A stretch of 64,000 nt of DNA from an uncultured Planctomycetales bacterium (GTDB taxonomy: Bacteria; Omnitrophota; Gorgyraeia; Zapsychrales; Fredricksoniimonadaceae), in NCBI GenBank assembly GCA_964572155.1, contig CAZNDZ010000001.1, positions 518,518 to 582,517 of the forward strand, given 5' to 3'. Of the stretch, positions 17,484 to 47,287 are shown piece after piece. Both the position numbers and the translations under genes were made by a program. The notes below the pieces were generated by a model, which saw nothing but the letters and a program-made list of their open reading frames with translations, was not told the DNA's origin and did not search any database. Numbering within the stretch: the stretch's first letter is position 1; every line of letters begins with the position of its first letter.

Positions 17484-17980
17484 AGTTTTTGGTTGTGATG
17501 ATGGTAGCAATGATGCCTGTATCCGCGTTTGCCATGGCTGAACGTCAGCCTAAACAGGATCCTATGATCGGTACCGTAGCACCGGAATTTGTCCTAGATA
17601 CAATTTATAATGGTACAAAGAAACTGTCTGAGGCGCGTGCGGGTAAGAAGGCGGTTTTGTTCTTCTGGGCCACGTGGTGTCCACATTGTCATGAACAAAT
17701 AACACGTTTAAATAATAGTGTTGAATCTTTAAAGCGTCGTGGATACTCCGTCATCTTGGTTGATTTGGGAGAATCTATTGGGCAGGTGAAAGCTTTCTTG
17801 CAGTTTAACACGATCTTCTTAGATTCTTTTGTCGATCCAGACAATAGCTTGCAGGATCTATATCAAATCCAAGGTGTCCCAACCATCTTTTATCTAGATG
17901 AAAAGGGCGTTGTTGTTTCTGTTGATCATGAATTTGGTGGCAATGTCGACAGCATTTATAACGTCGAGAGAAAGAATTAA
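17459..17980 (+). CDS. TlpA/ResA-like periplasmic thiol-disulfide oxidoreductase (thioredoxin fold)
   Basis: Signal peptide and 'FWATWCPHC' CxxC active site. The likely start is ATG 17477. Confidence 0.75.
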   Translation: MVKGECMLKFLVVMMVAMMPVSAFAMAERQPKQDPMIGTVAPEFVLDTIYNGTKKLSEARAGKKAVLFFWATWCPHCHEQITRLNNSVESLKRRGYSVILVDLGESIGQVKAFLQFNTIFLDSFVDPDNSLQDLYQIQGVPTIFYLDEKGVVVSVDHEFGGNVDSIYNVERKN

Positions 17981-19446
17981 CGGTAAACGATCTTATTCTT
18001 TAAATCGGGTTGTACGTTAGCTTCCAGTTTTAACTTGTTAACGAACATCCCGATTTTTTCATTACGCTTTTGAGCGCTCACCATTTGTTTGAAGTCTTCA
18101 CGGTCAATATCAAATTTCTTTTCATCAATGGCTTCCTTGCTGCTTAAATAGGCAATGGCAGGCCCTTGTGAGGTTTCAATCACACCGCTTAATTTATTCG
18201 CATCATTTAACGCATAGCTATCTTGTTGGAATTCAGCAATTAAGCCCGGTGCATTGATGTATTCGCCACGGCTAAACGCGGTTGTTTCATCCAATTTCAA
18301 GTTAAGCTCTGTTGCAATGCTCTTGAAATCTTTGCTCTTGATGCGTTCTTTGATCGTCGACAAACTAGCAGCAGCTTTGGCTTTGGCTAATTCATACGCT
18401 TTGGCATTGGTAGCAACAGTTTTAACTTTTGCGATGATGGTTGTAAATTCTGGGGTCGCGCTGGCGCGTTTTTCTTTGATGCGAATGACCTGCCAGCCAT
18501 CGGGTGCTTCCATTGGGGAGCTTGATTCATTTTGTTTCATGGCAAAGATTTTATCGACAAATTCAGGTGACCAAGCAAAGGTCAATAGGGGTTGTTCTTG
18601 CGAAAAGAATCCGCTTGTTTGAAGTGTTTGACCATGTTTGGTTGCGATGGTAGCAAAATCAGCCTTAGGTGTTAGTTCATGACTGATGGCTGCGGCAGCA
18701 TCCTTGATGGCTTGCTTTTTCTTATCATCGGCTTTTTCTGGGTATAACAAATGGACATATTCAACATTAACCATGGGTGGTTCACGGAATGATTCTTTGT
18801 TGGCATCATAGTATTTTTTTGCATCGTCGTCAGAAATCGTGATCGAGCTTAAGAAATCCGTCGGTGAGATGAGGGCATAACTTAACTTGATCTTTTCGTT
18901 ACGCTTGATGTATTCGGCTTTAAGTTCGGCATCGGTAAATGTCACATTTCCGCCAACATTGTCGAGCAATTTACGGATGATCAAAGAACGTCTTGCGCCT
19001 GCTTCAAACTCTTTGACCTTACGATCAAAAATCCCAGCATTTTCAACAATGCGTTCATAAACATTTTGATCAAATTTGCCGTTGGTTTGGAAGAAAGGCA
19101 TAGTAGCAATGTATTCGACTACTTCCTTGTCGCTAACGGTGATATTTTGACGTTTGGCTTCACGTGACAAAATGATGCGGGTCCAAGCTTCGCGTTCAAA
19201 ATCAATGGATTGTCCCATCTTAAAGAAGCGATCTCCGTAGGAAATGATGGCTTGGTCACGGCTATCAAGATAAGCACGTTCAAATTCACGCAAGTTAACG
19301 GACTTGCCGTACACTTTGCCTGCGGTATTGATATTGTTATCTAAACGGTAGGCGGTACCAAAAACACCAAATGACAGGATGATGATGACCGCGACAACCC
19401 ATAAAATTTTTCGTGAAACACCTTTGTGGCGTAAAATGCTTAGCAT
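17977..19446 (-). CDS. Periplasmic chaperone / peptidyl-prolyl isomerase, PpiD-like (SurA-N domain, membrane-anchored)
   Basis: N-terminal TM anchor followed by SurA-N-like chaperone region and a parvulin-like segment. One of only two minus-strand genes. Confidence 0.6.
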   Translation of the reverse strand: MLSILRHKGVSRKILWVVAVIIILSFGVFGTAYRLDNNINTAGKVYGKSVNLREFERAYLDSRDQAIISYGDRFFKMGQSIDFEREAWTRIILSREAKRQNITVSDKEVVEYIATMPFFQTNGKFDQNVYERIVENAGIFDRKVKEFEAGARRSLIIRKLLDNVGGNVTFTDAELKAEYIKRNEKIKLSYALISPTDFLSSITISDDDAKKYYDANKESFREPPMVNVEYVHLLYPEKADDKKKQAIKDAAAAISHELTPKADFATIATKHGQTLQTSGFFSQEQPLLTFAWSPEFVDKIFAMKQNESSSPMEAPDGWQVIRIKEKRASATPEFTTIIAKVKTVATNAKAYELAKAKAAASLSTIKERIKSKDFKSIATELNLKLDETTAFSRGEYINAPGLIAEFQQDSYALNDANKLSGVIETSQGPAIAYLSSKEAIDEKKFDIDREDFKQMVSAQKRNEKIGMFVNKLKLEANVQPDLKNKIVYR

Positions 19447-19574
19447 AAAAGTTCCTTCAGTTTAAGTTGCATGTTAAAGAATTGTGCAATTATAAGGGAA
19501 GCGGGCCGCTTTGACAAGGGCTTGTTTGAAAAATGCCCATTTGCCTATATTTATATAATGTGGTATCTTTTGGG

Positions 19575-22500
19575 ATGGTTCGAAAGCTGTTTTCCCTAAT
19601 ACTATGTGTGCTTTTAATGCAAAGTCCGCAACTCCATGCAGATCAGCTGGTCCTTCCTGCCGGTCAGGCAGGTTTACCGCTGCCTGGAACCATGGTGCAT
19701 TTAAGTCCTTCGGTCAATCCTCCAATCCTTAAAGGTATGAAGGTTTTTAAGGATAATCCGTTCCGTTTTGATTTTATTATGGAACATGGCCAAGACAATG
19801 TTCAAGCCAATACCTTGGTTAAATATTTCTTAGCTGCTTTAACCACACCCGAACAAGACATGTGGGTTAATTTAAGTCCCTATGAAAAAGATCGCATTGT
19901 GCCAGACGGTTTTGGTCAAACTCAAATGGGTCGCGACCTTTTGGCGCAAGATTACATCTTAAAACAAATCACCGCGTCGCTGATTTATCCTGAAGATGCT
20001 GTAGGTAAAGAATTCTGGCGCCGTGTATATGCCACAAGCGCGAATAAGAATATCCCAATCAATACATTTAATAAAGTTTGGATTGTCCCCAATAAGGCTG
20101 TAGTTTACGAGAATGCTAAAGCAGGTACAGCCTATGTTGTTGAATCCTCGCTTAAAGTTTTAACAGAACAAGATTACTTAGCCAATCAACGTAATAAGTC
20201 TGAAGAAAACAATAATCAAATCATCAAAGATGTGGTCATTCCACAATTAACCAAAGAAATCAACGAAGGCGCCAATTTTGCCCAATTGCGTCAAGTCTAC
20301 AATGCCTTGATCTTAGCAACATGGTATAAGAAGAAAATCAAAAACAGCATCCTATCCAAAGTTTATGCTGATCAAAATCGGATAGCCGGCGTCAATATAG
20401 ATGATCCAGAAGAAAAACAAAAGATCTACGCACGTTACTTAGAAGCATTTAAAAAAGGCGCGTATAACTATATTAAAGAAGACACAGACACGCTTGGCGT
20501 GTCTGGACCTAGAAAGTATTTTTCTGGCGGTATGAAGATGGATATGACGATGATGCAAGTTGTTAATAATGCTCAAGTTAAACCCCTCGATCAAGCCATG
20601 GTAATTAAGGTAAAGCTAGAAGTGGCTTCTTTATTGATGAGAGTTGCTTTGGGTTTAAGTGAACAAGAGATGAGTTTTGTTAATTATATCAAATCGCTAG
20701 ATCTAAAAAATGGCAGTGACATCTTGGCTATTGGGGCAACACCAGAAAAAGAATTTCGATATGGCAAGCAACAGGTGCGTGTCGAGTTATTATTTGCTGC
20801 GCTCGATCATCATGTGACGTTATTTCAGCCATATTGGAATGCATGGGATACGGTGCTGGATCAATCTCCTTGGAAGAAGGTTAGAAAGATCGATTATTTC
20901 AAAGAAAAGTTTACCAGCGAGAGCAAAATCGCAAAACGTTCTCAAGATGTTGTTGTCATGATGGCGGTAATGTCGGCATTTACAACAAGCATTCCTTATG
21001 AGAAAAAGCTCGACCTGATGCAAGCCGCGTTGGATGCGTTAAAAGACGATGGTTATTTGATGTTGGGTTGGTACAACTGGGGTACATATCAAAATGGTGA
21101 TATTTCAGGAGAACGAGAAGAGTTTGATAGAACAAATCGAGTGATTGAGGCATTTAAACAAAAAGGCTATGTTTTTAATTTAGATAAAGAAGGTAGCAAT
21201 ACGGCGCATCGATGGCATGTGTATAAAGTAACAAAACCCGATTCAGCCATGGCAACACCTGCAGAAGAGGCGGCTAAGAAGCGTCAGCAGGAAATGGAAG
21301 AGATGGCGGTGAAGGTAGCGACAGAGATGCGAGATGAATGGGGCGCATATCTGCGTAAGAAGAATGATTCCAATTTGAACTATCGCATTGAGAAAGCCTT
21401 GATTGATCCTGTCAAAGGCATCGTTTCGAATTATCTATTAAAGAAAATAGGGCGTCCTCAAGCGATCAGAGAATTGTATGATTTAGGTATTAATAGGCGA
21501 TTATCAAATTCTATGTTGGATTGGGCTGGGAATTTATTTTATCGTGCCATTGATGTTCAAAATAAAACGCTAACGTTACAGGAACAGGTTGTACCATTCA
21601 CATTTGATCAAATGGGTTTAGGGATTAATAAAACAGAGGCAAGGGCTATAACGGCCGTTTATACCGAATATTTAAATTTAAGTGAAGGTCAAAGTGTTGA
21701 GGTGGAGCGATATTTAGTAGGTGATAGGGATTGGCCTTATTATGATTTAAATGAACAGAAGTTATTAGATTCCATATGGATGGATGTGAAGTATAAAATG
21801 TCTGACGATGCATTTGGAGAATTCTATAAAAAAGAAATGATAACAGATATCAAAAAGCCAGAGACCGTGGCTTTTCTTAAGGCACAAGGATATTCTGATA
21901 AACAAATTAACGAGATGGCCAAAGATGCAGGCGTCTTATGGAAGCGTTGGGAATTAATTGCGGCGGAAAGTAAAGAAAAGGATAGAGCGCAAGTGGCGCA
22001 AGATTGGTTAAAACGTTTAGATGGCATGGTGTTTGAGGGGAAGAATGGCAAAAAGTATCAGATGATTAATAGTCATTCGGCCTTATACCCCGAGGAGTAT
22101 TTTATTTTGAATGAAATGGATGCGGATAACAACATCGTCCAACATAATGCAGGGTATTTTAATATCACCATCAAGGATCAGCTGATTATCCTTCATGGTT
22201 TTGCGATGCACCGCATTGAAGATCGTAAGCAATCTATTTTAAGTCAGATATTACAAATATTCCCCCAAGGGTATGACATTGAGTTTGAAGATATGACCAA
22301 TCTTCCGACGTTGAGAGATATGTTGCAGGGGATGTTGAATCAAAATTTTGAAGGCAAATTGAAGCAACGTTTAGAATTGTATGCATCGCAAAGTCCTTTG
22401 CTTTCTGAGAAATCGCTCGATGACGTCGTGATGTCCAAAGAAGAACATCAGGCATTGATGAAATTGTTGGTTGATTATCGCGATTTATCAAAACAGCCAA

Positions 22501-22889
22501 AAGCAAACTTGAAAAGCCTTGAAACAATTGCCATGGAAGGTTTCTCTGGAAAAATTCTCGGTGGTGGAGGCATAAATAGCCCAGTTCGCATAGAATTCAA
22601 AAAAATCAATGACCTTGATGTTGTAAGCCTTTATGTGAAACGTACTAAAGATTCAGCCCAACAGGTTGAAACGCCACTACAACGCGGGGGTATTGATTTT
22701 AATGCGGATAAGATGCAATTAGAGGCGCAGCATGATGATGGGGGCATTGATTTTCAACTGGATCCGGCTCAAATAAAGCAATTTCAGGATGTTGAAGGGT
22801 TTACACCCAATATTTTAAGCATGCAACCCATTCCTGCTGGCCAAGATGGCATCAATGTGGTTAAGACGTTCTTAGGGATGACCCTTTAA
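19575..22889 (+). CDS. Giant secreted protein, paralog 1 (unrecognised family)
   Basis: Signal peptide 'MVRKLFSLILCVLLMQSPQLHA'. The N-terminal module from about nt 19650 to 20520 is paralogous to the N-terminus of the 40556 gene. The C-terminal roughly 65 aa, with 'GGIDF' twice and 'DPAQIKQFQDVEGFTPNIL', is paralogous to that gene's C-terminus. Start chosen at ATG 19575 because the conserved upstream element ends there. Confidence 0.8.
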   Translation: MVRKLFSLILCVLLMQSPQLHADQLVLPAGQAGLPLPGTMVHLSPSVNPPILKGMKVFKDNPFRFDFIMEHGQDNVQANTLVKYFLAALTTPEQDMWVNLSPYEKDRIVPDGFGQTQMGRDLLAQDYILKQITASLIYPEDAVGKEFWRRVYATSANKNIPINTFNKVWIVPNKAVVYENAKAGTAYVVESSLKVLTEQDYLANQRNKSEENNNQIIKDVVIPQLTKEINEGANFAQLRQVYNALILATWYKKKIKNSILSKVYADQNRIAGVNIDDPEEKQKIYARYLEAFKKGAYNYIKEDTDTLGVSGPRKYFSGGMKMDMTMMQVVNNAQVKPLDQAMVIKVKLEVASLLMRVALGLSEQEMSFVNYIKSLDLKNGSDILAIGATPEKEFRYGKQQVRVELLFAALDHHVTLFQPYWNAWDTVLDQSPWKKVRKIDYFKEKFTSESKIAKRSQDVVVMMAVMSAFTTSIPYEKKLDLMQAALDALKDDGYLMLGWYNWGTYQNGDISGEREEFDRTNRVIEAFKQKGYVFNLDKEGSNTAHRWHVYKVTKPDSAMATPAEEAAKKRQQEMEEMAVKVATEMRDEWGAYLRKKNDSNLNYRIEKALIDPVKGIVSNYLLKKIGRPQAIRELYDLGINRRLSNSMLDWAGNLFYRAIDVQNKTLTLQEQVVPFTFDQMGLGINKTEARAITAVYTEYLNLSEGQSVEVERYLVGDRDWPYYDLNEQKLLDSIWMDVKYKMSDDAFGEFYKKEMITDIKKPETVAFLKAQGYSDKQINEMAKDAGVLWKRWELIAAESKEKDRAQVAQDWLKRLDGMVFEGKNGKKYQMINSHSALYPEEYFILNEMDADNNIVQHNAGYFNITIKDQLIILHGFAMHRIEDRKQSILSQILQIFPQGYDIEFEDMTNLPTLRDMLQGMLNQNFEGKLKQRLELYASQSPLLSEKSLDDVVMSKEEHQALMKLLVDYRDLSKQPKANLKSLETIAMEGFSGKILGGGGINSPVRIEFKKINDLDVVSLYVKRTKDSAQQVETPLQRGGIDFNADKMQLEAQHDDGGIDFQLDPAQIKQFQDVEGFTPNILSMQPIPAGQDGINVVKTFLGMTL

Positions 22890-35344: not shown

Positions 35345-36373
35345 ATGCATACAACCGTTGCCGAAATTGCCAATCTTATAGGCGGCCAGATCGTCGGTGA
35401 TGGTAATGTGAAGATCCAAGCATGCGCAGGTATTCACGAAGCAAAAAACGGGCATTTGACGTTTATTATCAGTGAAAAATATTTGCCGCAAGCTTTAAAG
35501 ACAGAAGCTTCAGCAGTCATTATTCCCCGACAGATGTCCTTGCCGGGGAAAACTGTTATTAGGGTCGACAATCCATCACTAGCTTTTACGTTGGTCCTAA
35601 AAGATTTCCTTAAAGATATTCCAAGCTCTCATCCTGTAGGCATTCATCCAACAGCGGTGATTGATCCAAGCGCGCGCATTGGTCGTGATGTTGCCATGGG
35701 GCCTTATGTTGTCATTGACAAAGGGGCTGTCATCGGTGATCGGACGATTCTTTATGCCCATAGTTATATTGGCCCTCGAACACATGTTGGTGCGGATTGT
35801 TTATTTTACGCACATGTAAACATTCGTGAAGATATTCACATAGGTAATCGCGTCATCATCCAACAAGGCGCTGTTATCGGCAGCGATGGTTATGGCTATG
35901 TGATGATGGATGGTCGTCATGAAAAGATCCCGCAAATTGGAACAGTTGTTATTGAAGATGATGTGGAGATAGGTGCGAATGCGGCCATTGATCGTGCGCG
36001 TTTTGAGAAAACCATTATTGGTGAAGGCACTAAAATCGATAACTTGGTACATATTGCCCATAACGTCATTACAGGCAAGCATTGTTTAATCATTGCCCAA
36101 GCTGGTGTTTCTGGCAGCGCTCGCTTAGGAAATTATGTTATACTTGCAGGTCAAGTAGGGGTGGTTGGCCATTTGACCATTGGCGATGGTGCTATTGTGA
36201 CGGCACAATCGGGGGTAAGTAAATCAATTAAGGCGGGTGAACAAGTGTTTGGTTCACCGGCACAGCCTATAAAACAAGCATTTATCACCAACGCGCATAT
36301 CCAACGTCTGGATCATTATGCCAAGACGATCAAAGAATTAAAACAGCGTGTGGATGCCTTAGAAAAGCGGTAA
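35345..36373 (+). CDS. lpxD: UDP-3-O-acylglucosamine N-acyltransferase (LpxD)
   Basis: Hexapeptide repeats. N-terminal LpxD domain 'IAELIGGQIVGDGNVKI'. Confidence 0.85.
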   Translation: MHTTVAEIANLIGGQIVGDGNVKIQACAGIHEAKNGHLTFIISEKYLPQALKTEASAVIIPRQMSLPGKTVIRVDNPSLAFTLVLKDFLKDIPSSHPVGIHPTAVIDPSARIGRDVAMGPYVVIDKGAVIGDRTILYAHSYIGPRTHVGADCLFYAHVNIREDIHIGNRVIIQQGAVIGSDGYGYVMMDGRHEKIPQIGTVVIEDDVEIGANAAIDRARFEKTIIGEGTKIDNLVHIAHNVITGKHCLIIAQAGVSGSARLGNYVILAGQVGVVGHLTIGDGAIVTAQSGVSKSIKAGEQVFGSPAQPIKQAFITNAHIQRLDHYAKTIKELKQRVDALEKR

Positions 36374-37659
36374 TGAAACAAAAATCAATTAAGTCAGATG
36401 TAAAGCTTTCAGGAGTTGGTTTGCATTCTGGAAAGAATGCCACCGTCACCATAAAGCCCGCGGCACAAGATCAAGGCATTGTTTTTAAGCGCACGGATTT
36501 GGTTAAGGTTGTGTCGATCCCGTTGGTGCCCTCAAGTGTTTTGCGGGATGAGAATGTTACCCGCTGTACGGCCATTTGTGCTAATGGTGCCAGTGTTTAT
36601 ACGATCGAACATTTGTTGGCGGCGTTGCATGCGTTGGGCATTGATAATGTGACGGTTGAGATTGACGCCGAAGAAATGCCAGGGATGGACGGCAGTTCTT
36701 TAGAATTTGTTAAAGCCTTACAACGTGCAGGGATTGTTGAGCAAGATGCGCCAAAGCAATACATTACCGTCACGGTGCCAATCACCGTCAGCAAAGGTGA
36801 TGCATCAGTTACCATTTTACCCGCGGATGATTTTAAGGTATCATATACCTTAGATTACAATCATCCGGCTTTACCGTTACAAACATTTGAGATGCCTGTT
36901 AATGCGGCGTCATTTGAAAAAGATATAGCACCGGCGCGGACATTTTGTTTAAAAGAAGAGATCGATGTTATCCGCAGCAAAGGTTTGGGCAAAGGGGCCA
37001 ATGAGCAAAACACCTTGGTCATGACCACAGATGGGCCGGTGGGCAATACCTTGCGGTTTAAAGATGAGTGCGCGCGCCATAAAGCCTTGGATATCGTCGG
37101 AGATATATTTTTGTTGGGTTGCCCAGTACGTGGCCATGTGATTGGCAATAAAAGTGGGCATGCGTTAAATCGAAAGTTAGTTGAGAAAATCATGGAGCAG
37201 AATATGAGTACAAAAGTTTACGATATTAATGAGATCATGAAAATTTTGCCGCACCGTTATCCGTTTTTATTGGTTGATCGTGTGACAATCACCGAGCCGG
37301 GTAAAAAAGGTGTTGGGCTAAAGAATGTAACGATTAATGATGGTTTCTTCGCTGGTCATTTCCCTCAACGTCCGGTCATGCCAGGCGTTTTGATGGTGGA
37401 AGCTTTAGCACAAACCGCAGGTGTTGTTGTATTAACCAGCGGCGCGCACCCTGATAAAGTCGCATTGTTCATGTCGATCGAAGGTGTTAAATTTCGTAAA
37501 GTTGTATCCCCCGGTGATCAGCTAATGTTGGAAGTTGAAATCATCCGCGATCGTGAACGCACCTCTCAAGTTAAGGGTATAGGTAAGGTTGATGGGGAAG
37601 TTGTTGTTGAAGCAGAAATGTTATTCTCATACACCGATGTGGAGTATTTAAATAAATAA
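36373..37659 (+). CDS. lpxC-fabZ: Bifunctional LpxC (UDP-3-O-acyl-GlcNAc deacetylase) / FabZ fusion
   Basis: N-terminal 'VKLSGVGLHSGK' LpxC start. C-terminal 'ILPHRYPFLLVDRV ... DGFFAGHFPQRPVMPGVLMVEALAQ' FabZ hot-dog fold. Confidence 0.85.
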   Translation: MKQKSIKSDVKLSGVGLHSGKNATVTIKPAAQDQGIVFKRTDLVKVVSIPLVPSSVLRDENVTRCTAICANGASVYTIEHLLAALHALGIDNVTVEIDAEEMPGMDGSSLEFVKALQRAGIVEQDAPKQYITVTVPITVSKGDASVTILPADDFKVSYTLDYNHPALPLQTFEMPVNAASFEKDIAPARTFCLKEEIDVIRSKGLGKGANEQNTLVMTTDGPVGNTLRFKDECARHKALDIVGDIFLLGCPVRGHVIGNKSGHALNRKLVEKIMEQNMSTKVYDINEIMKILPHRYPFLLVDRVTITEPGKKGVGLKNVTINDGFFAGHFPQRPVMPGVLMVEALAQTAGVVVLTSGAHPDKVALFMSIEGVKFRKVVSPGDQLMLEVEIIRDRERTSQVKGIGKVDGEVVVEAEMLFSYTDVEYLNK

Positions 37660-37663
37660 TTTT

Positions 37664-38464
37664 ATGTCGAGCCAAACGCAATATATGCCAAATCAAATTC
37701 ATCCGACGGCGATTGTAAGTAAAGACGCTGTGTTGGGCAATAATGTTACGATCGGTCCCTATGCGGTCATCAATGGCCCAGTTGTTTTAGGGGACAATGT
37801 TGTTGTAGGCGCACATTGCGTGGTTGAAGGTTGGACCACGATTGGGCGTAATTCCCAGCTTTTTACCGGCGCTGTCATCGGTAGTCCGCCGCAAGATAAA
37901 AAGCATGACATGAATCATAAGGTGTATTTGAAGATCGGTGAGAATAATATCTTCCGTGAGTATGTGACGGTCAATCCAGGGACCATCGACGGTGGTGGAG
38001 AGACCATCATCGGGGATGGGAATTTATTCATGGCCTGTTGCCATGTGGCGCATGATTGTCATGTGGGTAGTCATTGCATTTTAGCAAACTATGTTGGTTT
38101 ATCAGGGCACGTGACGATCGAAGATCGTGCGGTCATCGGCGGGTTGTCTGGTATTCATCAACATGCACGCGTCGGCTTCTTGTCGATCATTGGCGGTTGT
38201 TCTAAAGTCAATCAAGATGTGCCGCCCTATTGCATGGTCGATGGTAATCCTGCGACGCTGCGTACTTTAAACGTGGTCGGATTAAAGCGTGCGGGTATTT
38301 CTTCGCAAACAAGTTTGGCGCTACGTCGGGCGATTAAGATTTTATTTACGTCGGGCTTAGCACGCACCAATGCGTTAGCTCAAGTAAAAGAACAAATGGC
38401 GGACATTCCAGAAGTTCAACGTTTAATCGGCTTTGTCGAAAACTCTAAACGTGGCATCTCCTAA
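37664..38464 (+). CDS. lpxA: UDP-GlcNAc acyltransferase (LpxA)
   Basis: 'IHPTAIVSKDAVLGNNVTIGPYAVI' hexapeptides plus the C-terminal alpha-helical domain. Confidence 0.85.
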   Translation: MSSQTQYMPNQIHPTAIVSKDAVLGNNVTIGPYAVINGPVVLGDNVVVGAHCVVEGWTTIGRNSQLFTGAVIGSPPQDKKHDMNHKVYLKIGENNIFREYVTVNPGTIDGGGETIIGDGNLFMACCHVAHDCHVGSHCILANYVGLSGHVTIEDRAVIGGLSGIHQHARVGFLSIIGGCSKVNQDVPPYCMVDGNPATLRTLNVVGLKRAGISSQTSLALRRAIKILFTSGLARTNALAQVKEQMADIPEVQRLIGFVENSKRGIS

Positions 38465-39266
38465 AAAAATAATTGGCTTAATTGCAGGGAACAATCAATT
38501 TCCTTTCCTCTTTGCCCGTGCTGCTAAAGATCAAGGCTATTGTGTGATTGCTGCAGGTGTTATTGGTGACACATCGCCGCTTCTCTTTTTCTTCGTCGAT
38601 AAATTAAAATATTTTAAAGTGGGCGAGTTAACCAAGCTTTTTGCTTATTTTCGCCAATTTGGCGTGAGTGAAGTGATCATGGCTGGCCAAGTTAATCCAG
38701 ATAATTTGTTTAACCCCAATGTTAAGTTGGATCCTGAGTTTCAAAGCCTTGCCGATGCCCTGCGTGATCGTAAGACCGACACCATCTTTGGTGCTGTGGC
38801 AGATCGTTTGGGAAAAGAAGGTATGACCTTGCTTGATTCGACGATGTTGCTAAAAAAATATTTGTCACCAAAAGGCACATTGACCAAACGGGGCCCAACA
38901 AAGTCAGAATTAGATGACATTGAATTTGGGTTTGGTCTAGCAAAATCCATGGGTGGGATCGATGTGGGTCAGACGGTGGTTGTTAAAGAAAAAGCCATTG
39001 TTGCCATTGAAGCCATGGAAGGCACCGATAAAGCCATTCTACGTGGTGGCGCCATCGCACATAGTGGTGCTGTGATTGTCAAAACATCTAAGCCCAAACA
39101 AGATAGTCGTTTTGATGTGCCAGTCATTGGCCCGCGCACCATTGACAATATGATCAAGATTCAAGCCGCATGCCTTTGCATTGAAGCCGGCAAAACCCTC
39201 ATCATAGACATCGATCAAGTCCTCAAGAAAGCCAACGATAACAACATCTGCATCGTCGCTGCTTAA
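38433..39266 (+). CDS. lpxI: UDP-2,3-diacylglucosamine hydrolase LpxI (DUF1009)
   Basis: 'IGLIAGNNQFPFLFARAAKDQG' and the C-terminal 'DVGQTVVVKEKAIVAIEAMEGTD' are LpxI-like. Sits directly after lpxA. Confidence 0.6.
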   Translation: MSKTLNVASPKKIIGLIAGNNQFPFLFARAAKDQGYCVIAAGVIGDTSPLLFFFVDKLKYFKVGELTKLFAYFRQFGVSEVIMAGQVNPDNLFNPNVKLDPEFQSLADALRDRKTDTIFGAVADRLGKEGMTLLDSTMLLKKYLSPKGTLTKRGPTKSELDDIEFGFGLAKSMGGIDVGQTVVVKEKAIVAIEAMEGTDKAILRGGAIAHSGAVIVKTSKPKQDSRFDVPVIGPRTIDNMIKIQAACLCIEAGKTLIIDIDQVLKKANDNNICIVAA

Positions 39267-40477
39267 GGCCGCAAATCCAAAAATGGTTTTTCAATTAAGG
39301 TGTATAAGAGTACGGAAAGCGCCATTGTCATTAAACCACTGATGAGACCAACATAAACAATGTCTGTGGCTTGGATGTGTTGACCATGATACCAGCGTTG
39401 TAGTGTGATAAAGATAACAATGGGTTGAATCAAGTAAGCCGCATATGAAATTTTGGCAATAGGGTACCAGATTTTTAAGTTTAAGAATTGCTGGATGTTT
39501 CTTCCAATCAAAGTTTTGGAGAATGAGAGCATAAATAGTGCGCATGCCCCCAAAGCAAACCAATATCGATAAGTGGCCATATAAAAATTTCCAAGCGGGA
39601 TTTCCCAGTCACCATAATTTATTCTTCCTAAGATCCAGCCTAGCGTCAATATGGATGCGAACAATAAAGTGTATGCCCATCGTTTTAAATTGATGAATTT
39701 AAAAAAGGATTCGTGTTGAACCAAATAAGCAACACAAACACCGAGAAGCAATGGGCCATAACGCGTGTGTAGTTTGTCGTAGAGCAAGTCATAGTATCTT
39801 AGGAAATGCGTTGTATCCGTCGGGTGAAGCGCTGGATGTATCATAAAATAAAATGTGTAACCGTTTTTGTATGTTAAAAATATGTTGATGAAGAAACCAA
39901 TAATCAGAAGAGTTGAAATGATTAGGTGAGGTTTAAGTTTTTTGCGATAGATGAATAAGATTAGAAAAGGACAGATGATGTAAAATTGCTCTTCAACAGC
40001 TAGAGACCAGCCCCATGGCATAAATTGATTTAAATCTGAAATGAAATTATTGATGAAAATGAGATTTGCCCATGCATTGTGGATATTCTGGGATGTGTTT
40101 TTTGTAAAAAAAGCCAAGGCGCAAAATATTACTATGATCACATAATATAAAGGAGCAATGCGCATGAAGCGGCGCAGCAAGAAACGTAGCACATTTAATG
40201 TTTGGGTGTGGTGTATTTCTTGAAGCAATAAATTGCCTATTAAGAATCCACTGATGAGAAAAAAGATGTCCACACCAAAATGTCCATGCAGAAACCAACG
40301 TAGATATGGAGCATTAAAGAGTTCTTTGGTTTCGTTTGGTGGGAGAAACTCAGCAAAGAGTAAAATAACGTGAAAGGCAAAGCTCCAGATAATGGCTAAT
40401 GCGCGCATGCCATCAATGTGGTTATAGCGCCCTTCATTGCGGATAAAGATGGATCTAATATTTGCTTGGATATTCAT
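39263..40477 (-). CDS. Acyltransferase family 3 (OafA/OatA-like integral membrane O-acyltransferase)
   Basis: 'IDGMRALAIIWSFAFHV' AT3 motif. Ten or more TM segments. Confidence 0.7.
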   Translation of the reverse strand: MNIQANIRSIFIRNEGRYNHIDGMRALAIIWSFAFHVILLFAEFLPPNETKELFNAPYLRWFLHGHFGVDIFFLISGFLIGNLLLQEIHHTQTLNVLRFLLRRFMRIAPLYYVIIVIFCALAFFTKNTSQNIHNAWANLIFINNFISDLNQFMPWGWSLAVEEQFYIICPFLILFIYRKKLKPHLIISTLLIIGFFINIFLTYKNGYTFYFMIHPALHPTDTTHFLRYYDLLYDKLHTRYGPLLLGVCVAYLVQHESFFKFINLKRWAYTLLFASILTLGWILGRINYGDWEIPLGNFYMATYRYWFALGACALFMLSFSKTLIGRNIQQFLNLKIWYPIAKISYAAYLIQPIVIFITLQRWYHGQHIQATDIVYVGLISGLMTMALSVLLYTLIEKPFLDLRP

Positions 40478-40555
40478 AATATTATTAAGTTTCGTCCTTG
40501 ATCCTCATTCTATCAAAAACTAGCGTTTATATAGATAATATGGTATCTTTTGTTC

Positions 40556-43500
40556 ATGCCTCAGAAGTTTTGGTCTTTAATTTTGATGATATGTTTATTG
40601 CCCATGCCGCAAGTCCATGCAGGAGAAAGTGTTATAAGCCTGCCTGCCGGTCAGGCAGGCCTGCCTGTGCCTGGGACCATGGTTCATTTAAGTGCGCCAA
40701 CTAACCCTGTTTTGCTTAAAGGGATAAAAGTTCATCAGGATAATCCATTCAAATTTGAATTCGTAATAGATAAAGGCACCGTAGAGACGCCATTGATGGC
40801 GTCTAATACAACGATCGAAAATGAATCTAAAAAATTAATCAAATATTTTCTTGCCGCGCTAACCATCCCTGAAAAAGATCTATGGGTTAACTTAAGTCCC
40901 TACGAAAAAGACCGCATTGTGCCTGAAAGTTTTGGCCAAACCCAAATGGGCCGCGACTTACTCGCCCAAGACTATATTTTAAAACAAATCACCGCAAGTT
41001 TGATTTATCCAGAAGACACGATTGGCAAAGAATTCTGGCGACGCGTCTATGAAGCCTCCGCAGACAAAAATACTTCGATCAACACCTTTAATAAAGTCTG
41101 GATTGTTCCTAATAAAGCCAAAGTGTATGAGAATGCAAACGCAGGCACAGCCTATGTTGTTGAATCTTCCCTAAAAGTTTTAACAGAACAAGATTACGTC
41201 GCCACAAACAAAAATACCGTACAGACGCGATTTATCGCGTCTCAATCAACCCAAAATATCATCAAAGACATTGTCATCCCGCAATTAACCAAAGAAGTCA
41301 ACGAAGGCGCCAATTTCGCGCAGCTGCGACAAGTCTACAATGCCTTAATCCTAGCAACGTGGTACAAGAAAAAAATCAAAGACAGCATTCTGGCACAAGC
41401 CTACGCCGACAAAAACAAAATCGCAGGCACCCAATATCAAGACAATTTAAACCCAGAACAAATTTATGCGCGTTATCTCGAAGCGTTTAAAAAAGGCGCG
41501 TTTAATTACATTAAAGAAACTGACATGTCAAATGGCATAACCGTTCCAAGAAAATATTTCTCCGGCGGGGCCAACCTTCAAGTTTCGCAGGCGATGACAG
41601 CATCAGACAAAGAGCCAGTAACGACGGGTCATGAGTTTGTGGTTGAAGCAAAGCTTGAATCACCATCCATGAAAGATTATCGTGAAAGGTTAAAAAATGA
41701 ATACTATCATGCGCTCTCCACAGGGCAAAAAGTTATTGATATCACCGCATATTTAGGGTCTGCGGCAGTAAAAGGATTATTTAATGATGGATTTGTGTTT
41801 GAGTTGGATGGTTTTAAGCCAGGAAATATCTCAAATGGGCTTGGTCATGGAAAAGTAGAAGATCGGATTATTATGGAAGATCAAGGAGATCAGCGTATTT
41901 TTAAGCGAATTCGTAAGAATGCTAAATATCCTGATGGAAATATTGTTGTCTATTCTATTTGGCATAAGACACAAAAGAAGGATGAGCACTCGAATGGCAT
42001 GGTATGGGAAAGAGATTATGCACCTTTTGAAGATCGGAGCATAGATATTGAAAATAAATCCCCGTTTAATTCAAAACAGCGTTTTTATGAAGATATTGAG
42101 CGGGAATATAAAGATTTTCCTGGGACTATTGGCATTGCTAAGTTAATTTTTGAAGTTAATAAATTGGAATACAATAAATCAAGAATTGGATCGCTTGTTG
42201 GAAAACGATTACGTCCAACAAATTCTGATGGAAGCAGCACGTTTTCATTGATTAAAGGAAAGATTAAGATACCTGTTTTAGGTACAACTGATGATCTGCA
42301 TACATGGGATCCGGTCATTGTTAGTGAACGCATGGATGAGAATAGCTACGAATTTACTGTCCAGTCAACAACGGATGGCATGGAGCCTATAGAGCGTACA
42401 TTTCGTATAGGGAAAAAGACAAAACAGATAATGTGGAGGGGGCGCGGTAAAACTATTTATGTCATTGAACCTGTTGATCGGGTACCTGTGCAAGTGATGC
42501 AACGTTTGATTGACGCAAGAAAGCCTTTTAATGTTACACGAACTCTTGAAGCATTGAAAGCTATTGAAGGGCAAAATATTGATGTTACTGAAGACACAGG
42601 ACAAATTAAAGTATTCTTTGGAAATGGTGAGTTTTATCGGTGGGCTGTGTTAGGCATGCGGCAAGCTGGTTGGAAGGTTAAGGTGCTGGGAGCTAAGCCT
42701 TCTAGGACAGGTGATTCAATTATTCTTTCAATGATATTAAATAAGCTTAGTGGGCAACATGTTATCAAAGTTTTTGAGTTTGGTAAGAAGGTTGCGATTT
42801 CAAAGCGTGGTTTTAAACATTTTGTGATGGAGCCTGTTAAGTTTAAAGACCTTAGACAGGCGATGAGTGTGAGCGGTTCATATTTGAAAAACGATCTAAA
42901 GTTATTGAGTTTTGATATGACAAATACGATAAGAATCGTTTTTGCCGATGGTAATATTCGATCGAATAAGTATTTAGTATCTTATTCAATTAAACGTTAT
43001 CAGGAAAGATTTGGAAAGAAGGTTGCAGTGGGCGCTGGGCGTGTATTTCATCATGTTCAATTTGATAAAGACGAAGTTGATGATGAAGAAAATAATGCAA
43101 TGTTAGCAGAAGATTTCCCTCATCCAGGAAATAAAACCAGAGTAAATGAATTGAAAGTTGAAGCGCATGATTGGCTTGTTAAATTGCTTCGACGAGAATA
43201 TGGTAATTCGGTTGCTTTTGAGACGTTGGTTGATTCGGCAAAAGATAAGAGTTTTTATTTGGGGAAATTGGGTGCAGGGAAAATTGTTTTGCCGATTTAT
43301 GCGGACAAAGATTATACGCGGCAATTGTTAGATTCTTCTTTCTCGAAGAAGGCTGATGAGCGGTCTGGTTGGGAAACATGGTTGACGAATGTGCGTATGC
43401 TTCATGGTAGCGTCTGGTTTAATTTTGTTTTGATTAAACGAGAGATGGTTGATGGGGTTGAGCAGAAAAGAAAGATTGTGCAGGAGTATGTTGTTAATCC

Positions 43501-46500
43501 GTATATCACAAGGGATGTTCTTTTAATCGATGGAAAGGATATTGATGTTTTAGAAATTGTTAAAGCTGAAAATTTTCCGTCGCGCATGTTAAGTGCGTTT
43601 ATGTTGCGCCCTAATGACTTTGAGAAATTAAAGCCAATGATGTTGGCGTTACAGGGAAGCTTTTTTGGTTTGACACATACAGCAGGTGAAGTTCTTTTTG
43701 CTGTACCTAATAAGTTATATCCTGAAAAGAATTTATTCCTGATTGATAAGTCTGCAGGGGTTGAAGATAAAACACAATGGCATGCGGTTATGAAGAAAGT
43801 TAATTTTCACGATCAAGTGGTAGATTTTACGTTTGGTGTTAGTAAAGATGATACGGTATTGCCAGATGTGAATTTTCAAGCAAGCCCTGCGCTTCAAGAG
43901 CTTTCTGTTAATATTCATGATAAGCAAAAGACCCTAGATGTCATGACCTTAGACAAACGATTGGCTGTTAGAGGATTAGAAAAATTTGCATTATTCGGCG
44001 GCAGTGCGCAGGATTTGATTAAAAGTGGGTTCACCCTTAAAGGGACATCTTTTGGGGAAGTGAATGCCGCTGGTGCCGTGAGCATAACCCCTTGGTCGGG
44101 CCATTCTTATGCAGTGCCAATATCTGGTTTAAAAGATAATGGTGGTCGCGTAGCGATCATTGATGAATATATCTATACGTACTCGCAAGGGAATAAAATC
44201 CGTTATGAATTTACAGCATCAACAATAAAAGATGGAGAAATGCCGTTTCTTCGAAAGTTTATAGCTAGTAAAAATGTTGGCGATAGTTCGTTTGAATCTT
44301 TTGATATTCAGCCAGATGAATCATTTGATGCGCAACAGGCATTAGAAGCAACGTTAAAGCATATTCAGCGTTTGAATGGCGTGAAAATTAAAGTTACGAG
44401 TGGTGAGAATCCACGTCTAAGGGTTATTAATAGAAAATTCGGATTATATTTTCATTCCATATATTTTCAAGGTTTGCAGCCAGGAACCTATGATATGAAA
44501 GTTCAACAAAAAGGAAGAACTGGGGAGTTTAAAGTAACAATGAAAGGAATGAGAGAAACATTGATATATAGGATCAATGCTGATGAACAGCTAAATTTAG
44601 AGACAAATATCAGACCATCTGGCGACGATATTGGTCAAAACGAGTTTGATAAGTTTATATTAGATTTTCGCTCAAAACATCCGAATGATTGGGTTCAAGC
44701 AATACGACAGGATGATCAAAAGCTGAGGGTATATTGGAAAAGCAGTGATGGGAATATTTATCGCACCATTGTAACGGAAGATTTTCTAAAGAGCCTTGGA
44801 TATAGGAATGTTAAATTCAAATTACTTGAAGAAGACAGCAAAGAATATGCTTTGGTTAAGGATGCGATAGACACGAAAACCATGTATGCAACAAAGCATT
44901 TTTTGAAAGTTCAAGCGCAAGATGAATTCCCGCAAGAATATCTACGAAATAAAGAAGGTCTGAAGCGAATTTATGCCGCAACACCTGCGGTTGTTGGGCT
45001 TTCTCAATTGATGTTCGAAGGAATAAAAGGCAAGGAAAGCAAAGAGGTCTTAAAATCTTTAGTTGGTCAAACATTGCCCATTACAGATAAACAAGGAAGA
45101 AGTATATTTGCGATCTTTCCTAATTTTAGCATCAATTTATCGGTCATAGGAACAATGGAAGCAGGTTGGCAGCCTACGGTTTCAAAAGTTGGGATTAATG
45201 AATTAGGATATTTTGAATTTACCATAAGGTCGACGAAGGAAGGCAAAGTGCCAGTAGAGAGAACATTTGAAATAGGACGATTCAAGAAGAAATTCACATG
45301 GAATAATCTCGACGTATTTGTCTATAACTTAATTTCTGTTGAACGTATTCGTCTCATCATTTTAAAGAGGGTCGTTAAGAAGAAGGGGCGATTCAATGCG
45401 CCCAAAGTGAGTGTTTTGTTAAATCAATTAAGGGGTGTTGATTTAGGTCCTTCTTTACCGGGGGGGCAATTAAACATTTATCTATCAACAAATAAACGGA
45501 TGGCATGGTATTTTGCATCAGAAGCGGGTCGGACGATGCGTATATTAGATGCGCGTGTTAGTGACGCTAATGATTCAGTGCTTATTACGACATTGATTGA
45601 GCATACGGTGGGATCGTATTCAATACGAGTGTATGAACTAGGCAAAGAATATGTAGTGGTCAAGAAAGGCTTAGAACACTACACATTTAATCCTGTTTCT
45701 TTTAATAATCAAAATCAAGCAATACGGTTTATTAAGCCTGCCATCATTGGTTTAGATAAGCCTTTAGCGCGCGATCCATTTCTTTCGAATGTTGTTCTTG
45801 AGTTTCCGGATGTCTTAGAAAAAGAGAAGGTAGTGGTGATCCACAATGGAGAATATTATTCACTATTTCCAAAAGAAGAAAAAATGTATGTAGATCGAAC
45901 ATTCTCAGAGGTCAGAAGGGTTTTACAAGAAAGGGCTGTTCGTGATTTTATACAAGGTGATGCGTATAACGCATTGCCACTTAATCGAAGGCTAGGTGCT
46001 TTTATTAAGTTTATTCGCTCAAATGAATACTTTCATGGTGTTGGAAATATGGGAAAGATTTGGAATGCTTTACAGAAACTTGAGGATGAAGAACTTGAAA
46101 ATGAATTAGATTGGGGAAAGATTGGTGGATATAGCATTTTGTATAAAGATTATGAGCGGTTGGTTTCTATTTTAGAGCAAAAAGAAGTTTCTGGGTTCAT
46201 CGAAGAAAAGATAGTCAAGGGTCATATAATCCCTAAGTTAAGCATCAAGTTTTTGCGACGACATTTATTACAAGAACATGCTACTTTTATGTCCCGCATT
46301 CCATTGATGGATTTATACTTAGCCATCCCAATGCAATACCGCAGTCATTTTGCAAGACCAGACGCCGCCATGCTCACAACGTCTGAATCGAATACCGGTG
46401 GGATCGATCTAACAGCCGATCAAATGAATCTCCAAACCAAATCCCAAGATCAACAATCCATGGCCTTTCATATGGATCCAGCTCAGTTGGCTCAGGTGCA

Positions 46501-46576
46501 AAATGCAGAAGGGTTTGAGCCGGTGATTGTTAGTGTTTTGCCGTTGACTGATCTGCATGCGTTTTTGACGCGTTAG
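40556..46576 (+). CDS. Giant secreted protein, paralog 2 (about 2000 aa) with internal about 170-aa repeats (unrecognised family)
   Basis: Signal peptide 'MPQKFWSLILMICLLPMPQVHA'. N-terminal about 300 aa and C-terminal about 65 aa are paralogous to the 19575 gene. At least three internal repeat copies are anchored by 'YEFT-x-x-ST-x-[DE]G-x-x-P-x-x-R-x-F'. Confidence 0.8.
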   Translation: MPQKFWSLILMICLLPMPQVHAGESVISLPAGQAGLPVPGTMVHLSAPTNPVLLKGIKVHQDNPFKFEFVIDKGTVETPLMASNTTIENESKKLIKYFLAALTIPEKDLWVNLSPYEKDRIVPESFGQTQMGRDLLAQDYILKQITASLIYPEDTIGKEFWRRVYEASADKNTSINTFNKVWIVPNKAKVYENANAGTAYVVESSLKVLTEQDYVATNKNTVQTRFIASQSTQNIIKDIVIPQLTKEVNEGANFAQLRQVYNALILATWYKKKIKDSILAQAYADKNKIAGTQYQDNLNPEQIYARYLEAFKKGAFNYIKETDMSNGITVPRKYFSGGANLQVSQAMTASDKEPVTTGHEFVVEAKLESPSMKDYRERLKNEYYHALSTGQKVIDITAYLGSAAVKGLFNDGFVFELDGFKPGNISNGLGHGKVEDRIIMEDQGDQRIFKRIRKNAKYPDGNIVVYSIWHKTQKKDEHSNGMVWERDYAPFEDRSIDIENKSPFNSKQRFYEDIEREYKDFPGTIGIAKLIFEVNKLEYNKSRIGSLVGKRLRPTNSDGSSTFSLIKGKIKIPVLGTTDDLHTWDPVIVSERMDENSYEFTVQSTTDGMEPIERTFRIGKKTKQIMWRGRGKTIYVIEPVDRVPVQVMQRLIDARKPFNVTRTLEALKAIEGQNIDVTEDTGQIKVFFGNGEFYRWAVLGMRQAGWKVKVLGAKPSRTGDSIILSMILNKLSGQHVIKVFEFGKKVAISKRGFKHFVMEPVKFKDLRQAMSVSGSYLKNDLKLLSFDMTNTIRIVFADGNIRSNKYLVSYSIKRYQERFGKKVAVGAGRVFHHVQFDKDEVDDEENNAMLAEDFPHPGNKTRVNELKVEAHDWLVKLLRREYGNSVAFETLVDSAKDKSFYLGKLGAGKIVLPIYADKDYTRQLLDSSFSKKADERSGWETWLTNVRMLHGSVWFNFVLIKREMVDGVEQKRKIVQEYVVNPYITRDVLLIDGKDIDVLEIVKAENFPSRMLSAFMLRPNDFEKLKPMMLALQGSFFGLTHTAGEVLFAVPNKLYPEKNLFLIDKSAGVEDKTQWHAVMKKVNFHDQVVDFTFGVSKDDTVLPDVNFQASPALQELSVNIHDKQKTLDVMTLDKRLAVRGLEKFALFGGSAQDLIKSGFTLKGTSFGEVNAAGAVSITPWSGHSYAVPISGLKDNGGRVAIIDEYIYTYSQGNKIRYEFTASTIKDGEMPFLRKFIASKNVGDSSFESFDIQPDESFDAQQALEATLKHIQRLNGVKIKVTSGENPRLRVINRKFGLYFHSIYFQGLQPGTYDMKVQQKGRTGEFKVTMKGMRETLIYRINADEQLNLETNIRPSGDDIGQNEFDKFILDFRSKHPNDWVQAIRQDDQKLRVYWKSSDGNIYRTIVTEDFLKSLGYRNVKFKLLEEDSKEYALVKDAIDTKTMYATKHFLKVQAQDEFPQEYLRNKEGLKRIYAATPAVVGLSQLMFEGIKGKESKEVLKSLVGQTLPITDKQGRSIFAIFPNFSINLSVIGTMEAGWQPTVSKVGINELGYFEFTIRSTKEGKVPVERTFEIGRFKKKFTWNNLDVFVYNLISVERIRLIILKRVVKKKGRFNAPKVSVLLNQLRGVDLGPSLPGGQLNIYLSTNKRMAWYFASEAGRTMRILDARVSDANDSVLITTLIEHTVGSYSIRVYELGKEYVVVKKGLEHYTFNPVSFNNQNQAIRFIKPAIIGLDKPLARDPFLSNVVLEFPDVLEKEKVVVIHNGEYYSLFPKEEKMYVDRTFSEVRRVLQERAVRDFIQGDAYNALPLNRRLGAFIKFIRSNEYFHGVGNMGKIWNALQKLEDEELENELDWGKIGGYSILYKDYERLVSILEQKEVSGFIEEKIVKGHIIPKLSIKFLRRHLLQEHATFMSRIPLMDLYLAIPMQYRSHFARPDAAMLTTSESNTGGIDLTADQMNLQTKSQDQQSMAFHMDPAQLAQVQNAEGFEPVIVSVLPLTDLHAFLTR

Positions 46577-46640
46577 CCTGCGTATACTTGACGAATACAA
46601 ATGAATATTGTATATTCATATTAAGTACAAGGGGGTTTTT

Positions 46641-47160: not shown

Positions 47161-47181
47161 GATGGCTCCTGTCTTGAGCTG

Positions 47182-47210
47182 TTGACACCCGCCCTTTGTT
47201 TCCTTATAAT
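47182..47210 (+). promoter_or_regulatory. Consensus sigma70 promoter (TTGACA-17 nt-TATAAT) upstream of lysS
   Basis: Exact hexamers with a 17-nt spacer, read from the sequence. Confidence 0.5.
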
Positions 47211-47231
47211 ATTATATTCTAGATAATATAG

Positions 47232-47260: not shown

Positions 47261-47287
47261 AACGGGTAATACTTAGGAAGGTTATGT

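Follow-up and report, generated by a model that had tools for sequence, protein, structure and literature searches.

A C-terminal module shared by two long Omnitrophota proteins is one half of a two-part frame around variable cargo

We analyzed the C-terminus shared by two long plus-strand open reading frames (ORFs), G1 and G2, in 64,000 nucleotides (nt) of Omnitrophota DNA (contig CAZNDZ010000001.1, positions 518,518 to 582,517, assembly GCA_964572155.1; hereafter the window). The Omnitrophota, ultra-small bacteria that occur widely and are for the most part uncultured, are suspected of a predatory or parasitic life, and the giant proteins that they export are still unexplained. An earlier note on this DNA had proposed that the shared tail is a C-terminal sorting tag, by the logic of type IX secretion system (T9SS) C-terminal domains (CTDs), LPXTG or PEP-CTERM signals. 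Our analysis indicates that the tail (C-module) is not a free-standing tag but half of a two-part frame whose other half is a conserved N-terminal domain (N-domain) of ∼320 amino acids (aa). The sorting-tag idea holds in part, in that the tail forms a conserved handle at the C-terminus; its targeting role is putative. As judged from the sequences, the tail may serve a cargo carrier exported by Sec as one of its two invariant handles, in which the C-module would dock and processing at D-x-A/M motifs is possible; we give this reading a probability of roughly 0.45.

The C-module and its pairing with the N-domain

The two ORFs span 19533..22889 (G1, 1118 aa) and 40550..46576 (G2, 2008 aa, from a TTG at 40550) when starts are assigned mechanically. 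The true start codons are likely ATG 19575 in G1, which was picked because homologues open with an M-[KR]-rich segment followed by a signal peptide, and ATG 40556 in G2, yielding proteins of 1104 aa (19575..22889) and 2006 aa (40556..46576). BLASTP aligned G1 and G2 in an N-terminal high-scoring segment pair (233/372 identities, 63%, E 3e-146) and a C-terminal one (25/62 identities, 40%, E 3e-10), and no significant alignment was found between them. A leave-out profile, built from 58 other proteins with G1 and G2 excluded, matched the two tails with 77.6 bits (G1) and 81.4 bits (G2). Chance similarity or low complexity was rejected as the source of the tail match on the strength of these values. 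The shared module and the differing centres reported in the earlier note were thus recovered, and the motifs it quoted are correct, stand at the places given and fall on the conserved positions of the family. G1 and G2 are the only C-module carriers in the window.

The family consensus of the C-module, which is about 60–70 aa long, is GGID[LF]-x(4)-M-x-L-x(3)-N-x-G-x-x-I-K-F-H-L-D-P-A-M-L-x-Q-L-Q-N-A-P-G-F-x-P-V-I-I-N-I-Q-P-x-x-D-L-x-x-F-L-G-L, with invariant G, F and P residues. The conserved unit begins at a D-x-A-[MQ] motif, slightly 5′ of the position first given for it (DSAQ at nt 22650 in G1, DAAM at nt 46361 in G2).

Both proteins share one layout, with all features on the plus strand. 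In G1, a predicted Sec signal peptide (MVRKLFSLILCVLLMQSPQLHA, 19575..19640, putative cut site before DQ) precedes the N-domain (19641..20531; hidden Markov model (HMM) E 1e-173), whose C-terminal end is PRKYFSGG. An N-side linker with the separator motifs NNAQ and DQAM (20565..20600) leads to the variable cargo (20601..22649), which is unrelated to the G2 cargo, has merely weak cargo matches to two other family members, and contains the separators DSAM (21240-21251) and DRAQ (21981-21992). The G1 C-module (22650..22886) comprises DSAQ (22650-22661), GGIDF (22686-22700), a second GGIDF (22740-22754) that corresponds to the consensus position G-x-I-K-F, DPAQ (22761-22772), EGFTP (22794-22808), a PAGQDG insertion and FLG (22869-22877).

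In G2, the predicted Sec signal peptide (MPQKFWSLILMICLLPMPQVHA, 40556..40621, probably cut before GE as judged from sequence and family pattern) is followed by the N-domain (40622..41569, HMM E 5e-171, also ending in PRKYFSGG), the separator-like motif SQAM (41585..41596) and an internally repetitive cargo of about 1,590 aa (41597..46360) with an internal NNAM separator (43091-43102). The G2 C-module (46361..46573) comprises DAAM (46361-46372), GGIDL (46397-46411), DPAQ (46475-46486), EGFEP (46508-46522) and FLT (46562-46570).

A P-A-G-Q-A/D-G motif recurs at both ends of some members. It follows the signal peptide in G1 (19641-19700), G2 (40640-40680) and P0007 (LPAGQAGLPxPG), and it forms the C-module insertion of G1 (22824-22845) and of about eight other members, as PxGQAG before DLxxFLGL. 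The N-terminal motif was seen in three members, two of which also had a C-terminal copy (P0007, P0043 and P0018 are among the members noted).

To survey the family, an exhaustive HMM search with a 60-sequence C-module profile was run against 1.84 billion cluster representatives; 4,386 of them matched at E ≤ 1e-3 and 1,690 at E ≤ 1e-10. Searching for homologues of G1 yielded more than 4,292 proteins (627–1,949 aa), the named ones belonging to ‘Candidatus Omnitrophica’, and the matches spanned only the N-terminal ∼30% of the query. A GGI[DN] module closed 119 of the 120 best N-domain homologues, the remaining one having GGVD. A scan of species-representative genomes gave 170 confirmed sites, from which 78 loci were kept. 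Their labels are almost all Omnitrophota or generic Planctomycetes–Verrucomicrobia–Chlamydiae (PVC) metagenome-assembled genomes (MAGs), with one Alphaproteobacteria and two labelled just ‘bacterium’. Many genomes gave several loci: one MAG has at least 12 copies, and a single 1.34-Mb contig supplied nine of the best G1 matches. The earlier note had said that a sorting tag would be refuted if no other protein of the genome carried it; related genomes have many copies.

Known families gave no counterpart. The full G1 and G2 proteins had no Pfam or NCBIfam match at E ≤ 1, and six isolated tails had none even at E ≤ 10. PDB sequence searches with the C-module profile and the N-domain returned no match, the N-domain had no Pfam, NCBIfam or fold match, and no fold match of the C-module to a known globular domain was found. 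A description of the family was not found in the full-text literature searched. The earlier note had not recognized the motif, and these searches bear it out. The family so far appears to be Omnitrophota-specific, very large and not described before.

The N-domain is ∼320 aa long and has an almost invariant PRKYFSGG at its end. Complete members all open with an n-region, an h-region and an A-x-A-type site, followed by a conserved LPxPGxMVxLSP. HMMs for the N-domain and the C-module, run on every six-frame ORF of the window and the 78 loci, detected both parts in 63 ORFs and the C-module only in 27. Of these 27, 19 are truncated at the 5′ contig end, one borders on a contig end and masked sequence, three are separated from a neighbouring N-domain ORF by a frameshift or stop, and about four look truly N-less. 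Hence ∼90% or more of the intact genes with a C-module have the same N-domain.

The two ends also vary together. Among 132 complete members, pairwise identities of the N-domain and the C-module co-vary (Spearman 0.67, reached in 0/200 Mantel permutations), and homologous cargo was found in 31 of 8,646 pairs. Even where N-domains are at least 80% identical (n = 88 pairs), cargo is shared in only two. Because the ends are paired and co-vary and the cargo is unrelated, the N-domain and C-module move as one frame, and the centre is replaced between them.

These data bear on the proposal of a free-standing C-terminal sorting or anchoring signal, in which a dedicated machine would read the last ∼60 aa of any carrier and the N-domain would be a separate matter. 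The position of the module agrees with it: the module ends 0–23 aa from the C-terminus in 150/150 matches listed, on unrelated centres, and the polar tail after it has a median of 7 aa (range 0–41 aa). Within a genome the copies conserve core positions only (40% identity between G1 and G2), as would be expected for a motif read by a receptor, and a few carriers seem to be N-less. The pairing with one N-domain and the co-variation of the two ends stand against it. Furthermore, the module has neither a transmembrane (TM) helix nor a basic tail (253 members; maximum 19-residue Kyte-Doolittle hydropathy of module plus tail, median 1.03, with values of at least 1.6 in just 5/253), no beta-sandwich is predicted, no known signal HMM matches it, and no sortase, T9SS or peptidase gene was found in the window or recurrently near the 78 loci. 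What the earlier note had said of the position lock stood, whereas the free-standing character and the likeness to T9SS CTDs, LPXTG and PEP-CTERM did not. We consider a free-standing signal unlikely.

The apparently N-less carriers differ among themselves. The ORF L033 8603-10198 (531 aa), between a porin-like gene and another family member, has a C-module but no N-domain; it consists of a prepilin-type N-terminus (NLA, then FTIIELVIVISVLA; Pfam N_methyl was below threshold), cargo, DAAM and a canonical C-module. The ORF L010 1992-2801 carries a DnaJ domain. The best N-less case with its own signal peptide, P0219, is an apparently complete 377-aa gene with a C-module, the first ∼110 aa of which resemble a Bacteroidota-type M43 peptidase; it was rejected as a clean N-less carrier, since its contig (L079, 1,381 bp) is probably chimeric.

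C-module-only ORFs were also seen directly 3′ of complete members or cargo-like ORFs (L012 8147-10198, L040 9761-10204, L010 1992-2801). Those of L012 and L010 are in the same frame as the preceding ORF, with one stop codon between, and such ORFs could be displaced orphan cassettes or read-through extensions. A mini-member of 176 aa (P0200) comprises a signal peptide, the N-terminal ∼95 aa of the N-domain, a DKAQ linker of 16 aa and a complete C-module, and is either a deletion derivative or a cargo-less form.

Structure prediction covered a full-length protein and an isolated tail. In the AlphaFold2 model of a short but complete protein of the family (P0046, 656 aa, 66-sequence alignment), the N-domain is alpha/beta with long helices (predicted local distance difference test (pLDDT) 80–92), the cargo is disordered and the C-module has pLDDT 43–76. 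An isolated C-module (G2 tail, 88 sequences) gave a predicted template modelling score of 0.29; its first half was coil (pLDDT 52–60) and its second half was modelled as a helix (PAQLAQVQ), an extended strand (GFEPVIVSVLP) and a helix (DLHAFL) with pLDDT 76–88. In these models the C-module is neither globular nor a known domain.

The C-module could instead be the structural partner of the N-domain, folding back onto it or supplying its PGFxPVIINIQP strand to that of another subunit. Variable centres would then be displayed on a common core or polymer built from the conserved ends, as in flagellin or in pilus donor-strand exchange. The almost exceptionless co-occurrence of the two parts and their co-variation agree with such a partnership, and so does the isolated module, which is not compact in the model yet includes an extended strand, confidently predicted and flanked by prolines. 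When the full-length protein is modelled, beta structure appears in the first half of the module (E595, E604-608, pLDDT 72–76), which is coil when modelled alone, but the second half falls to pLDDT 43–53. The linker after the N-domain holds a copy of the first half of the module in a few members (P0132, E 2e-4; P0226, GGMDL..NLG..ELQT..HIDPAQL), and because of this copy the cargo appears to be inserted where the N-domain once ran straight into the module. A profile-profile comparison of linker and C-module, however, gave just a 7-column GG-h-D-h match with a probability of 29%. On balance, a structural partnership is doubtful. The related idea that the N-side linker is a full duplicate of the C-module was only partly supported (single members at E 2e-4 to 3e-3; at the profile level, the GG-h-D-h start only).

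Separator motifs and cargo

The motif that opens the C-module also separates the other parts of the protein. One to three copies of [DNS]-x-A-[MQ] occur within 70 aa after FSGG in 133/141 members, and D-x-A-[MQ] lies 5–20 aa upstream of GGID in 166/234 members, against a background of 0.12 per 40 aa. The strict motif D-x-A-M was observed 106 times inside cargo, where shuffled sequences predict 9.3, and never inside N-domains. Family ORFs have 2.07 copies per 1000 aa, 22-fold more than the 0.092 of non-family ORFs at these loci. In long members the copies are 350–1,100 aa apart, about the size of one protein, and at about a quarter of the separator sites Q takes the place of M.

D-x-A-M is under selection at the protein level. 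The nucleotides flanking it and its synonymous positions are unconstrained, and the Ala codon shows an even spread of third-position nucleotides. Shine-Dalgarno cores stand before 13% of the D-x-A-M Met codons, 11% of other internal Met codons and 44% of the real gene starts in the window. Given the lack of nucleotide conservation and of any Shine-Dalgarno excess, a translated ribosome-binding site or internal start was rejected.

In 28/201 members (14%), compared with 4% of control windows, the first cargo unit begins with a signal-peptide-like segment that follows the motif Met at native spacing. Such segments have a charged n-region, an h-region and an A-x-A-type site, and some have a twin-arginine translocation (TAT) pattern (SRRxF) or a lipobox. 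They suggest that a gene was captured whole, with its initiator Met kept as the Met of D-x-A-M. Examples were seen in L033 11070-16508, P0009, P0020, P0043, P0088, P0249, L060 and L069, including the TAT-type SRREF and SRRGFF and the lipobox LVGC; in L033 11070-16508, D-x-A-M with a signal-peptide-like pattern recurs three times along the protein.

The cargo units are unrelated to each other, range from about 190 to more than 3,000 aa, and number one or more per protein. Their domains are mostly those of cytoplasmic-type enzymes and regulators: Pfam identified methyltransferases, phosphoribosyltransferases (PRTases), GGDEF, kinases, PGK, PPDK, glycosyltransferases (GT), HEAT and sigma70_r4, and also FHA and DnaJ, and an SNF2-like helicase was identified by eye in P0150. 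A similar repertoire of cytoplasmic-type domains is reported for the predicted extracellular regions of Omnitrophota giant proteins (10.1101/2023.11.21.568195). In the repetitive G2 cargo, FTVQSTTDGMEPIERTFRIGKK (around residue 600) is similar to FTIRSTKEGKVPVERTFEIGRF (around residue 1560), and two separate regions of this cargo match one and the same part of P0136.

A bolder reading takes the family as a phylum-wide ‘captured-gene polyprotein’ delivery system, in which whole ORFs with their initiator Met, and even their own signal peptides, lie between D-x-A|M processing sites on a Sec-exported carrier. The two conserved handles would bring this carrier out of the cell, and its cargo would be set free inside a host or prey. 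Enzymes of cytoplasmic type (kinases, methyltransferases, PRTases, GGDEF, sigma, DnaJ, SNF2) would find their cofactors in the victim, and where a Sec, TAT or lipoprotein signal peptide has been kept, it would direct some of the cargo to the victim's envelope. We regard this reading as quite unlikely.

Cargo is also exchanged at fixed genomic positions. The slot that holds G2, between the lpx cluster and lysS-lolCD, holds family members in several genomes, with unrelated cargo in each. One to three members lie between lpxC-fabZ/lpxA/lpxI and lysS-lolCD in the window (36373-48730) and in L049, L069, L020, L022, L033 and L059. Tyrosine recombinase genes (Phage_integrase, E 1e-34) were observed within 6 kb of family genes in eight assemblies (L047 2105-3277, L026 4283-5422, L021 3-1046, L030 2233-3234, L042 2424-3425 and five more positions); they may play a role in cargo exchange or may be just mobile elements.

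That the conserved ends are mainly DNA homology arms for cassette exchange, with no protein-level role for the tail, is very unlikely: cargo turnover between fixed ends and at syntenic sites, the orphan C-module ORFs directly behind complete members (L012, L040) and the nearby tyrosine recombinase genes would suit it, but the C-modules of G1 and G2 share only 55% identity at the DNA level, too low for homologous recombination between them, conservation lies in the amino acids with synonymous positions free (as shown for the flanking motif), and the invariant G, F and P residues point to a protein-level constraint.

Genomic setting and proposed role

The window otherwise contains ordinary diderm housekeeping genes: a SurA/PpiD-like peptidyl-prolyl isomerase (PPIase), hisG, the lpx cluster, bamA, skp, lysS, lolCD, clpC, mla and tRNA synthetases. 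A full Pfam pass revealed no sortase, secretion or dedicated peptidase gene in the window, and T9SS genes (SprA, PorV, PorU and others) were not seen there. Sortase, exosortase and rhombosortase genes were absent from the window and not recurrent near the 78 related loci. Clustering of the neighbours of these loci gave generic genes only (response regulators, ABC-F/ABC ATPases, integrases), with no conserved partner gene and no recurrent small downstream gene. The co-occurring sortase, peptidase or translocon that the earlier note suggested looking for was accordingly found neither in the window nor recurrently at the related loci.

The PPIase (SurA_N/Rotamase_2, 17980-19446, minus strand) is the divergent neighbour of G1. 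A conserved Rotamase_2 PPIase is reported from secretion loci near Omnitrophota giant genes (West-Roberts et al., 10.1101/2023.11.21.568195), and the parallel may be a coincidence.

Upstream of both genes, the 12-mer TGGTATCTTTTG ends shortly before the likely start codon (plus strand; 19561..19572, 2 nt before that of G1; 40541..40552, 3 nt before that of G2). It occurs exactly only at these two places, where 0.47 copies are expected by chance, and resembles a −10 element, in which case the leader would be very short or absent. In other genomes, the boxes ATAYTW, CTTG[TA]T and TGGCARA are over-represented upstream of family start codons. Promoter-like boxes abut family start codons across genomes, as CCCTTGTTTTT-N17-CATACTT or GGTGGCAAA-N~18-TATACTT, and ATAYTW precedes 27/48 family starts but only 2/41 and 16/275 controls. 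Loci with boxes include L002, L012, L020, L022, L047, L051, L008, L013, L023 and L035. These patterns suggest that family transcripts may be leaderless and co-regulated, with true starts at 19575 and 40556.

The family layout can be summarized as a Sec signal peptide, the N-domain ending in PRKYFSGG, a linker with one to three D-x-A-M/Q motifs, cargo units split by D-x-A-M, and a last D-x-A-M/Q followed by the C-module 0–41 aa from the stop codon. The reading that we favour starts from this layout. The carrier would be exported by Sec, and the N-domain and C-module would then act as invariant handles that give diverse cargo a common post-Sec fate. The cargo might, for example, cross the outer membrane, become attached to it, or be delivered to a host or prey. 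Neither an enzyme nor an autonomous domain, the C-module would serve as a docking element through its proline-bracketed PGFxPVIINIQP beta-strand and the flanking short helices. Cargo units would be freed by proteolysis at D-x-A|M, each beginning at the apparent original initiator Met of a captured gene. As a speculation, cytoplasmic-type cargo would be easier to understand if it were destined for the cytoplasm of another cell.

Several points weigh against these proposed handles. Export is predicted from signal peptides alone, and machinery that would recognize the handles was not found in the window or recurrently near the 78 loci. Cleavage at D-x-A|M is conjectural, and about a quarter of the sites carry Q and not M. 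The C-module reaches only pLDDT 43–76 in the full-length model. The correlation between the two ends could be explained by shared descent alone, and the few seemingly N-less carriers (L033 8603-10198, L010) would, if real, favour a more autonomous tag.

Whatever its function, the family comprises thousands of mid-sized predicted exported proteins, at least 9–12 per genome, new to Pfam, NCBIfam and the literature searched, which have in common two end-pieces and a short separator motif around an ever-changing payload. The N-domain, the C-module and D-x-A-M merit family models. If the ends are export or delivery handles, they would represent (i) a new post-Sec routing of proteins in diderm bacteria; (ii) a sequence signature with which to list the effector or surface repertoire of any Omnitrophota genome; and (iii) a testable explanation for signal peptides on cytoplasmic-type enzymes in this phylum. 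Delivery of captured genes, if true, may be a new secretion or effector logic behind the predatory or parasitic lifestyle of Omnitrophota, with a possible link to the giant proteins.

Comparison with known systems

T9SS CTDs of Bacteroidota (Por_Secre_tail/TIGR04183, TIGR04131) resemble the C-module in being locked to the C-terminus of diverse Sec-exported proteins, in many copies per genome. In contrast to the C-module, which did not match Por_Secre_tail, TIGR04183 or TIGR04131 and is predicted to be helix-strand-helix and is 60–65 aa long, they form an 80–100-aa seven-strand immunoglobulin-like sandwich. The N-termini of their cargo share only a signal peptide, whereas the C-module is tied to one N-domain, and the phylum differs.

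The signals of sortases, exosortases and archaeosortases (LPXTG, PEP-CTERM, PGF-CTERM, GlyGly-CTERM) likewise occupy the extreme C-terminus of many exported paralogs, and the C-module even contains a ‘PGF’ tripeptide. Those signals consist of a motif, a hydrophobic TM helix and a basic cluster, but the C-module has no TM helix, no basic tail and no NCBIfam match.

Signals of the type I secretion system (T1SS) with repeats-in-toxin (RTX) and of autotransporters were excluded on three grounds: the signal peptide, the size of the module and the absence of nonapeptide repeats. T1SS/RTX substrates lack a Sec signal peptide, whereas G1, G2 and all complete homologues have a typical one; in place of tandem GGxGxDxUx nonapeptides there is a single GGID[LF], with no HemolysinCabind match. 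The autotransporter barrel of the type V secretion system is about 250–300 aa long, far larger than the C-module, and the N-domain is modelled as alpha/beta and not as a barrel.

Multifunctional autoprocessing RTX (MARTX) toxins are alike in that conserved N- and C-terminal regions frame unrelated effectors in flexible linkers, which are freed by proteolysis and many of which need cytoplasmic cofactors. They differ in having no Sec signal peptide, in using a T1SS with glycine-rich repeats and in bringing a cysteine protease domain of their own; such features were not found here, there is no homology, and D-x-A|M processing of the present family is presumed only. Flagellin also has conserved, co-evolving ends and a free centre that is sometimes enzymatic. 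It is exported by a type III secretion system, whereas Sec would serve here; the N-terminal part of the family is a 320-aa alpha/beta domain and not a helix, homology is lacking, and packing of the ends against each other is conjectural.

Polymorphic toxins, such as the C-terminal toxins of contact-dependent inhibition (CDI) proteins (CdiA-CT), Rhs and MafB, show the same fast swap of payloads on a conserved scaffold, orphan fragments behind genes and many paralogs, and the family has the conserved scaffold and exchanged payload by which polymorphic effector carriers are recognized. In those toxins the payload is the C-terminal tip and is accompanied by an immunity gene, whereas here the payload is central, the C-terminus is conserved and no downstream gene recurs.

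The Omnitrophota giants (‘Archaeovorins’, 10.1101/2023.11.21.568195) belong to the same phylum, are predicted to be exported, are proposed to be cleaved into smaller pieces and contain cytoplasmic-type domains (HEAT, GT, PPDK, NUDIX, GGDEF, HAD and glycolytic enzymes). They exceed 30,000 aa and contain numerous TM segments as well as SecA-like domains, and the paper gives no frame of N-domain, C-module and D-x-A-M. By analogy, and without homology, the architecture of the family would come closest to carriers with conserved ends and variable centres, such as MARTX and flagellin, and its dynamics closest to polymorphic toxins.

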